Shown: in pieces, positions 4,611 through 11,576 of the stretch
How positions within the stretch are numbered: the stretch's first letter is position 1
How the letters are laid out: each line of letters starts with the position of its first letter
Source: a virus
Taxonomy: Duplodnaviria; Caudoviricetes
Virus record (IMG/VR): IMGVR_UViG_3300037044_000221
Coordinates: 1 to 32,368 of that record
DNA length: 32,368 nt
Reading direction: 5' to 3' (one strand)
Notes under the pieces: model-generated
Told to the model about the DNA's origin: nothing
The model's input: only the letters and a program-made list of their open reading frames with translations
Database searches by the model: none
Program-made: the position numbers and the translations under genes

Positions 4611-5060
4611 ATGAAAAAAGGAGTTTACGACCGATTCTTCGCGCTGCTAAACCAAATGCCTTCCGACGATAAGGATGAGCTAAAGGAGCAGCTGGTTTGG
4701 CAATATAGCGGTATGCTTACCGCATCGCTTAAGGAGTTTGCTGCCCAAAAACCCGAGGAGTACAAGCGTATGCTTGCCGATATGCAGGTTCAGGTTGAAA
4801 AGTTTAATCCTAAAAGGTTTCGCGAACAGGAAACGAAGCGCCTGCGTTCGGCCATTTTAAATCGGTTGCAAAAGTATGGCATCGATACTACCCAATGGCC
4901 TGCCGTGAATAAGTTTTTGCAGCAGCCACGAATAGGCGGAAAGAGGCTATACGAAATGAGCAACGAAGAGATGGCCCTTCTTATTCCTAAGTTAGAAAAC
5001 ATTCTGAAAAAGGATGTTGAAAACCGTGAAAAAGAACGCGACTTAGCATTTAACAACTAA
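4611..5060 (+). CDS. Conserved-looking early phage protein (GemA/gp16-like position)
   Basis: Tightly packed ORF; RSAILNRLQKYGIDTTQWPAVNKFLQQPRIGGKRL motif. Confidence 0.6.
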   Translation: MKKGVYDRFFALLNQMPSDDKDELKEQLVWQYSGMLTASLKEFAAQKPEEYKRMLADMQVQVEKFNPKRFREQETKRLRSAILNRLQKYGIDTTQWPAVNKFLQQPRIGGKRLYEMSNEEMALLIPKLENILKKDVENREKERDLAFNN

Positions 5061-9935: not shown

Positions 9936-10205
9936 ATGGAACTAGCCAATGCCCGTTACATCCTATTCCTGATCGACTCGAAAATTAAGGAACACGACGG
10001 CAAGATATTCTGCTCGCTAAAGGAAGCCAGGGAGTACGCCAAGGATACCATTAACGAGAAGTATGCCGACAAGGCAGTAGTAGGAATGTTTGTGTGGGAC
10101 AGTGAGCGAAGAGAACTGCCAATTACAATGGTTGAAACCATAGGGTTTCAAGGCGATAAAAAGGATCCACTTCAATTGAGATTATTTGAACCAACACGAT
10201 TATGA
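9936..10205 (+). CDS. Hypothetical protein
   Basis: Operon packing; ends in a QLRLF clamp-binding-like motif. Confidence 0.65.
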   Translation: MELANARYILFLIDSKIKEHDGKIFCSLKEAREYAKDTINEKYADKAVVGMFVWDSERRELPITMVETIGFQGDKKDPLQLRLFEPTRL

Positions 10206-10615
10206 AAATTTTACACCTTACACTCAAAAAGAAATGGTATGACATGATACTTAGTGGCGAAAAATTGGAGGAATATCGAGAAACCAAAGAGTATTGGAGC
10301 ACCCGACTAAGAAACAAACAGTTTGATATTATCCGTTTTCGCAACGGGTACAAAGCCAATGCACCTTCGATGGATGTAGAATTTAAAGGTGTAAAATTTG
10401 GTGAAGCCAAAGGGAGTTGGTCAGACAACGCAGAAGGAATATTTTATGTAATATCGTTGGGTAAGGTTATGAATGCAAAGAGCGGCGAGAGCGTGAAGCC
10501 TTTGCGTAAGCCTATGTTTTGCGAATGTCATAAACCTTTTGCAAGAAAGATGCCTAATGGGGAGTTAATTTGTGATTACTGTAAAAACCCCAAGAAAAAG
10601 CAAACTGGACGCTAA
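10202..10615 (+). CDS. ASCH-domain protein with C-terminal CxC...CxxC zinc-ribbon-like tail
   Basis: LHLTLKKKWYDMILSGEKLEEYRE...FRNGY. Confidence 0.8.
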   Translation: MKILHLTLKKKWYDMILSGEKLEEYRETKEYWSTRLRNKQFDIIRFRNGYKANAPSMDVEFKGVKFGEAKGSWSDNAEGIFYVISLGKVMNAKSGESVKPLRKPMFCECHKPFARKMPNGELICDYCKNPKKKQTGR

Positions 10616-10753
10616 CGTTATCGGGGTTGGGCTTCGTTGCCCCCTGATTAAAACAACTAATTATCAACTTAATAATACCAATGATATGGAACAAAACGCT
10701 AACCAAACTGATGCACGGGGCAATAAGCTTAACCCCTTGTTACCGCCCGTTTT
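10611..10753. repeat. attC-like imperfect inverted repeat
   Basis: GCTAAC..GGGGTTGGGCTT-cg-TTGCCCC [~73 nt loop] GGGGCAA-t-AAGCTTAACCCC..GTTACCG. Confidence 0.65.
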
Positions 10754-11078
10754 TAATACTATTAACTTTGAGCGGGAAAAAGTAGCAACTTATGCTAGAA
10801 TTTCAAAAGAGATGCTAACCGATTTAAAAATGAAAGTTGAGCAATCAGATGATGATTTTATTTATGATTTACTTCACGCTCAACTTGTAGGTTATATTTA
10901 TTCAAATATGTCGGAAGAGAGAGATTTAGTTTACTGGTGCAAACGACCAACATTTTTTGAGTGGTTGTTTAGGAAAAGTAAAAAAGTAGTATTTAAATTA
11001 CAAGTCAAAGATATATTGTTAAATCCACCAAAAGATAAAAATACTGCAAGAATATATCAAGTCGAATATCCGTCTTAA
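10686..11078 (+). CDS. AT-rich cassette-like hypothetical protein (start re-called to ATG 10686)
   Basis: In-frame ATG within the hairpin loop; body visibly more AT-rich than its flanks. Confidence 0.65.
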   Translation: MEQNANQTDARGNKLNPLLPPVFNTINFEREKVATYARISKEMLTDLKMKVEQSDDDFIYDLLHAQLVGYIYSNMSEERDLVYWCKRPTFFEWLFRKSKKVVFKLQVKDILLNPPKDKNTARIYQVEYPS

Positions 11079-11136
11079 AATTGGCGGTAACTAAGGGGTG
11101 GGTATGTTTTTTAACGGCAAAATAATAGTTAAGATT

Positions 11137-11289
11137 ATGAGCAACAGAATTGTAAGGCGAATAAGGTTTGATAAAAAGCAACTCGAGGCTATTGCTAAGC
11201 TACGAATAGCCTCGGTTGATGCTTTTACCAGGGTTGCCGTTTACGAAAAATTGGAGAGGGATTTTAAGCTAAAAGTAAACCCCGCATAA
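11137..11289 (+). CDS. Small basic hypothetical protein (start uncertain: 11098, 11104 or 11137)
   Basis: ORF track; ATG 11137 has an A-rich upstream context. Confidence 0.5.
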   Translation: MSNRIVRRIRFDKKQLEAIAKLRIASVDAFTRVAVYEKLERDFKLKVNPA

Positions 11290-11351
11290 GCGGGGTAGGT
11301 TTGGCGGGAAAGGCAGTAGGGGTACTGCAAAATTAAACCAAACCTATAAAT

Positions 11352-11576
11352 ATGGCATACAACAGGAGAAATATTTTAAAACGAATTATTGACATTCAGA
11401 ACCTAACCCTTGAGCAAACTGCCAGGGGAGTAACGCAGGAGTGGGTTTTCAATAATATTATATTTCCAACGTATCGCATTTCGCGATCGTGCTACTACTC
11501 TTACCTTAGCCAAAATGCCAAGGCACAGCTTAAAAAACTCGATGAAATTACCTCAAGCCAAATGAACCTATTTTAA
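11352..11576 (+). CDS. Putative late/middle transcription regulator (positional analogue of Mor/C)
   Basis: HTH-like TQEWVFNNIIFPTYRISRSCYYSYL; last gene of the early operon before the late genes. Confidence 0.55.
   Translation: MAYNRRNILKRIIDIQNLTLEQTARGVTQEWVFNNIIFPTYRISRSCYYSYLSQNAKAQLKKLDEITSSQMNLF

Follow-up and report, generated by a model that had tools for sequence, protein, structure and literature searches.

A likely mobile integron-type cassette, with its start codon inside an attC-like hairpin, in the early region of a Mu-like phage

The window analysed here, that is, the whole stretch of 32,368 nucleotides of the IMG/VR record IMGVR_UViG_3300037044_000221, is a Mu-like transposable phage or prophage, with genes for a transposase (phrog_310), a transposition ATPase, a Mu-type portal, a protease and tail proteins. 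As the original prediction had it, no integrase is present: no tyrosine recombinase was matched among the 52 open reading frames (ORFs) of the window that were scanned, so that any recombinase action on the unit described below would be exerted in trans. Most of the region is present in four groundwater sequencing runs, two of which are possibly its source, and no RNA dataset is found among the runs listed as containing it; the host presumably belongs to the Bacteroidota, given where the hairpin family described below occurs. The unit stands out by its G+C content (0.335 vs 0.449 for the whole window), and a scan of the window for sigma-70 promoters gave matches at chance level. Further downstream, at 11279–11340, a G+C-rich hairpin and the next ~50 nt before the gene at 11352 resemble positions 4930–5000 of the related phage L027.

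The gene preceding the unit (10202–10615, + strand) had been called ASCH-like, a label given only in the original prediction; no Pfam family matches it, and its residues 1–93 match phrog_625, a family without a function. Its last 12 nt before the AAC triplet resemble an outer arm of the kind described below. The 48-residue tail of this gene (10469–10615) contains two CxxC-like motifs and resembles the decayed remnant of a cassette protein; the GTT at 10516 is preceded by right-arm-like sequence (rank 3 of 625) and the stop of the tail lies inside GCTAAC, and the search around this tail gave no left arm, a poor partner match and no homologue. In terms of the CALIN definition (at least two attC sites and no integrase), the family detector finds one full site in the window, next to the possible decayed arm at 10516.

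The unit begins with the left AAC triplet (10614–10616, + strand), the putative crossover point, which is part of the motif GCTAAC (10611–10616) and overlaps the TAA stop of the upstream gene (10613–10615). The attC-like hairpin core that follows (10617–10738, + strand), recognised both by folding and by the family detector, is ordered as AAC, 6-nt spacer, left arm (10623–10643), A-rich loop, right arm (10717–10736), 2-nt spacer and GTT; the inverted repeat that had been proposed to follow GCTAAC and to close at GTT does pair in the fold of the + strand, with one bulged C in the arm at 10635, and the left arm ranks 1 of the 707 AAC positions on the + strand of the window. As in attC sites, AAC and GTT core triplets close an imperfect hairpin. 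The fold energy is unremarkable (z −1.28 for the + strand and −2.35 for the − strand), the window's own − strand folding lower than the +. The GTT and the 12-nt outer arm behind it (10739–10753, + strand), which encode LPPVF and form the second exchange point of the family, are complementary at 13 of 15 positions to the right outer arm (11077–11091, + strand), which ends in the terminal AAC (11089–11091), the putative crossover and end of the unit and the place of the fork in an assembly graph described below. The proposed bracketing of an AT-rich body (G+C 0.335) by these complementary stretches is thus confirmed; one of the mismatches is a G.T conserved in the family, the pairing of the outer arms being 11/12 when this G.T at position 8 is counted, and 10739/11091 is the best of the 25,528 GTT..AAC pairs on the + strand. 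Core complementarity between both ends of the gene, a criterion for integron cassettes, is found here and family-wide.

The ORF of 130 residues contained in the unit (10686–11078, + strand) is composed of a leader (residues 1–23), encoded by the hairpin and the arm, and a body of ~107 residues; its ATG at 10686 lies inside the hairpin, as had been claimed, and more precisely in the loop, codon 18 ends at 10739, and the TAA stop (11076–11078) overlaps the right outer arm. The element TAACTA...TAGTTA (11088–11131), which had been put forward as a further site, does not behave as one: 2/10 of its arm positions pair, its AAC is not folded onto GTT, and it scores as a bare end. The flank itself (11092–11131, + strand) is neither a hairpin site nor a match to the attI-like consensus; it keeps T1 and T8 of the bare-end consensus after 11091 and, since its score of −5.8 against the attI-like profile falls inside the null range (−16.2 to −0.6), this end is read as a likely secondary target. 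Of the features of a complete integron, neither intI nor attI adjoins the cassette, the 52 ORFs being free of recombinases and the right end not being attI-like.

A profile search with the encoded cargo protein gave 199 relatives, whose median length is near 110 residues among the 150 listed; their start methionine aligns to position 23, the modal position, in 43 of the 142 scored (9 were skipped), and falls within positions 21–25 in 88. The outer arm ends at codon 23, and the next ATG is codon 43; since the leaderless relatives mostly start where the inverted repeat ends, the leader likely replaces a start lost at capture, and the cargo, judged from these alignments, would have lost its own start on capture and been provided with that of the hairpin. 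Homology to free-standing relatives that begins where the inverted repeat ends would also offer a testable route to the birth of cassettes. Among the matches listed the leader is shared only by P0002, a protein 68% identical to the cargo. The cargo is taken as an accessory early gene; as to its function, no Pfam or PHROG family was matched (Atlas best 0.82), and a fold search with the model of the cargo (pLDDT 82, pTM 0.59) gave no match, with E above 0.001 and a best Z of 4.3. No locus for the cargo protein was found in viral or metagenome contigs, and no real match for the unit in cultured phages, so that P0002–P0004 come with no genomic context.

By its layout, the hairpin is assigned to a family of ~120 nt (AAC, 6-nt spacer, arms, 2-nt spacer, GTT), whose members number hundreds in viral contigs and in genomes, mostly of Bacteroidota. 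Scans with two degenerate patterns gave at least 121 and 126 viral-contig stretches (about 280 and 450 estimated), and a scan of genomes gave at least 132 (about 1,900 estimated), Bacteroidota taxa being named, by hand count, in 68 of the 80 genome rows among the matches listed; three narrow DNA patterns had 0 matches in viral contigs, and no Rfam family came close to its gathering score. At least 7 of the 10 arm positions pair in 94/121 and 122/126 distinct viral pattern matches, the chance rate being 0.038 with two pairs fixed. A weight-matrix detector, built from the sites of other phages with the window left out, found 192 sites including the window's own and 0 in shuffled or reversed controls, and in 54/54 multi-site loci of this set the sites lie on a single strand. 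Enlarging the run brought the totals to 416 sites in viral contigs and 168 in genomes, against 0 in 3.56 Mb of shuffled sequence. The existence of an integron-like cassette family in phages, as originally proposed, is supported by these detections. Short members are missed by the detector, as it finds no site in the Polaribacter phage P12002L.

Throughout the family, the 12 nt after GTT pair with the 12 nt before the downstream AAC, the pairing ending at position 13, and a G.T occupies position 8 of this outer stem in 65/66 cases. In 248/350 sites, position 4 within the inner arm is an A.C; the window has the fixed G.T but not the A.C. Classical attC sites typically have extrahelical bases close to the L box and a central spacer that is nearly symmetric; both are absent here, the ten positions of the inner arm being in fixed register and the spacer being 6/2; it may be that the fixed mismatches (G.T in the outer stem, A.C in the inner arm) stand in for bulged bases. 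The + strand folds lower in 241/350 phage sites but in 80/163 host sites, and G.T pairs occur on the + strand in the outer stem and on the − strand in the inner arm; the picture is mixed, and strand stability picks no strand. In the lake-water run X5, five short contigs (depth 26–85) carry the left arm (window 10600–10642) with different flanks, the arm being therefore common in that sample.

The extent of the moving unit is indicated by breaks at the AAC triplets. In run X4, a contig covering 10660–11091 ends exactly with the terminal AAC, where the assembly graph forks into two contigs, one being the phage flank and the other a 54-nt piece with 24 other letters, starting with G, which look by eye like another left arm (this branch shares 30 letters only). 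Run X5 belongs to a different study and a different year; one of its contigs matches 10614–10728 with 8 differences and carries 246 foreign letters before 10614, and a second one matches 10719–10997 with 4 differences, just 20 letters of it lying to the left of GTT; this run covers little outside the unit, a gap that was not counted as evidence. Family-wide, 151/151 pairs of near-identical hairpins (90% identity or more) have unlike sequence upstream of AAC; bare end-AACs amount to 69/187 in phages, vs 7/146 bare start-GTTs, a contrast that is weak in hosts (13/62 vs 9/54), and the bare AAC ends have a common consensus, with T at position 8 in 41/43 and 10/10. Pairs alike over the whole body, one of which is 100% identical with unlike flanks, share the upstream hairpin in 4/6 cases, neither hairpin in 2/6 and only the downstream one in 0/6, a seventh row having been set aside as a duplicate of itself. 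No contig joint skipping or circularising the unit was found in four runs per search, and no empty allele among the relatives retrieved through three neighbouring genes (26, 11 and 80 loci; BLAST of all); the 11 relatives read for ORFs differ wholly in the slot of the unit.

From these breakpoints the mobile unit is read as hairpin plus gene, 10614–11091, with AAC at both ends, the cassette being inverted with its own site before the gene. The original prediction had drawn it otherwise, as a cassette running from GTT 10739 to a site at 11088–11131, which would borrow the start of a hairpin already resident in the phage. That GTT is a genuine exchange point in the family speaks for this layout, and the 13/15 complementarity fits either one, but 11088–11131 is not a site, the same leader is found on the 68%-identical P0002, the unit seen moving runs from AAC to AAC, with the X4 and X5 contigs breaking at these triplets, and none of the six whole-body pairs shares only the downstream hairpin; a GTT-to-~11131 cassette is thus very improbable.

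Orientation was counted with the sites set as in the window and the longest ORF scored in each unit: this ORF is sense in 212/222 viral units vs antisense in 54/64 genomic ones. The antisense host units indicate that host arrays follow the classical arrangement, read on the opposite strand, the phage genes being those inverted; the order expected of an integron cassette, with the gene preceding its attC on the top strand, is found in 54/64 host units, but not in the window nor in 212/222 phage units. In 111/222 viral units, the ORF opened by a hairpin ATG spans 60% or more of the body, the other half of the units having their start within the body, and the hairpin-borne ORFs are distributed over the three frames as 59, 50 and only 2 of 111; a stop right after GTT accounts for the rarity of the third frame in only about half of the units (112/222). 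The proposal that the site donates a start to the next module holds, therefore, in part: at this locus no ATG other than that of the hairpin precedes the conserved body, but such starts are found in just 111/222 phage units. Many bodies (L001, L039, L041, L042, L070, L082, L083, L100, L378 and others) resemble DNA methyltransferases, judged by their motifs. The predicted start of translation in the loop of half of the phage units, and the lack of a recombinase in the window, would also suit dispersed repeats acting as linkers or at the RNA level (processing, translational coupling), with mosaicism produced by general phage recombination; against this, the same sites are antisense to the host genes (54/64), the outer arms are complementary across each gene, and the end of arrays is a conserved half-site with a tyrosine recombinase next to it, which makes such an explanation most improbable.

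Exchange is seen also at GTT. The 151 hairpin pairs that are at least 90% alike, which come from 44 clusters and are not independent, include 11 that keep the body, 12 that keep only the outer arm and 128 that differ from the outer arm on; at the family level, the claimed joining of hairpin-coded leaders to different ORFs, with the break at GTT, is indeed observed (128/151). Starting from the bodies, 38 pairs with the same body start carry unrelated hairpins in 21 cases, the same in 15 and something between in 2; a swap of hairpin, in frame, occurs in 11/19 body families (grouped by hand), and four in-frame leaders occur on a single methylase body. In related phages, nearly the same hairpin start is found on many different genes, which suggests that phages mix and match the beginnings of their genes. 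General recombination at similar right arms may be behind the GTT swaps: AAC exchange would then be site-specific, and the GTT swaps would be due to homologous recombination or gene conversion at the right arm, or to a cassette-making step with stock hairpins. Right arms are indeed alike across the family, the 12/151 pairs keeping the outer arm and changing the body have their break 12 nt past GTT, and some of the "unrelated" hairpins (0.63–0.68 identity, with bodies at 0.80–0.85) may reflect plain divergence, the 95th percentile of the background being 0.67; on the other hand, identity between L098 and L129 starts at the T before GTT, their 2-nt spacers being different, and bodies 92–96% alike carry hairpins 52–69% alike. 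On balance this account of the GTT swaps is rather unlikely.

Candidate enzymes are found in related loci, where tyrosine recombinases, found mostly by a motif in loci of 3 kb or more, occur in 8/119 viral and 6/49 genomic cases. For 14/14 genes the position is the AAC side of the array, with five of them within 80 nt of the last end; the link between recombinase and site is positional. In four viral loci (L071:2398–3201, L374:5500–6327, L398 and L442) and four more, a short tyrosine recombinase was observed directly after a bare AAC end; its gene shares the strand of the cassette genes and, given this arrangement, insertion of further cassettes would take place at the end farthest from the promoter. 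The six recombinases scanned have Phage_int_SAM_4 and Phage_integrase domains, and 6/6 are below the 265-bit cut-off of TIGR02249 (best 210.8, with two stretches each). The recombinase of L234 spans 15 residues where VchIntIA has 57, and that of L374 is likewise shorter; both aligned enzymes are thus without the I2 insertion, which is reported as defining for integron integrases (PMC4792948). The idea of a recombinase acting in trans stands for the phage of the window, which has none, but some phages carry their own (8/119 loci).

Taken together, these observations make it probable that 10614–11091 is a mobile integron-type cassette, which entered the early region of a Mu-like phage via an AAC crossover catalysed by a tyrosine recombinase in trans; hairpin and gene likely arrived together, through an enzyme made elsewhere, in the host or in another phage. 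With the cassette excised as a circle, its two outer arms would form a stem of 15 bp at the base of the hairpin. The + strand, in its folded form, would then be cleaved at AAC and linked to an attI-like site or a secondary site, either of them double-stranded, and the gene would be read from an early promoter of the phage, with the ATG in the loop as start. In classical sites, loss of the bulged bases has been reported to relax strand choice (PMC5027507). The family site has no bulged bases near the core, and the other strand would thus likely also be recombined at times, at GTT; as regards one-strand selectivity, breakpoints are found at both triplets, AAC and GTT. Where an array has two such sites, excision between them at GTT would leave each body joined to the hairpin of its neighbour and thereby give it a new in-frame leader. 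It is conceivable, at somewhat less than even chances, that Bacteroidota and their phages share an unrecognised two-strand system without I2, in which AAC crossovers move hairpin and gene and GTT crossovers graft starts and leaders onto start-less bodies. If so, AAC crossovers would reach even recombinase-less phages such as this one, and GTT grafting would make new proteins and tune their translation, which would account for some of the mosaicism among the early genes of these phages. The prevailing view is that integrases owe to the I2 domain their ability to act on folded sites. With the standard tool, hardly any integrons have been reported in Bacteroidetes (PMC9024848); a frequent cassette system without canonical sites or I2 would widen both views.

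Among known systems, the cassettes of class 1 integrons and of Vibrio chromosomal integrons are similar in the imperfect AAC/GTT hairpin, in the core complementarity across the gene, in the same-strand arrays and in the attI-like half-site that lies beside a tyrosine recombinase in related loci. The differences concern the site, with a 6/2 spacer in place of the 6/5 spacer and bulged base of attCaadA7 and a 15-bp outer stem with a fixed G.T; the phage genes, inverted and starting in the loop; the frequent exchange at both triplets; and the recombinase of related loci, without the integron insertion. No description of the inverted layout with a hairpin start was found in the full-text literature searched, a coverage from which subscription papers are mostly absent, the nearest being phage attC clusters. 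These phage CALINs (17 among 10,705 genomes; Qi et al. 2023, PMC9892861) likewise comprise attC-like sites in integrase-free phages with DNA methylase cargo; one of their sites, P12002L_attC1, has the AAC-G-6-nt layout of the family on the gene strand and is the only one of six reported as not recombined by IntI1, and the main text of that paper makes no mention of inverted genes, of starts within the hairpin or of a recombinase dedicated to these sites. Insertion at attG (bioRxiv 10.1101/2022.09.11.507474) is comparable in that a lone cassette at a non-attI site is expressed from a resident promoter, but is reported there for IntI1-3 and classical attC sites in E. coli and Vibrio, a different family of sites. 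ORF-11 and ORF-17 in attI1 and the short ORFs in attC (PMC8876359) also give translation signals from the site across the crossover; according to that source these act mainly by translational coupling, whereas here the site-coded leader is in frame and likely replaces the start of the cargo. By site anatomy, gene orientation and enzyme this cassette thus falls outside the integron cassettes, but it is real, likely mobile and would work like one of them.
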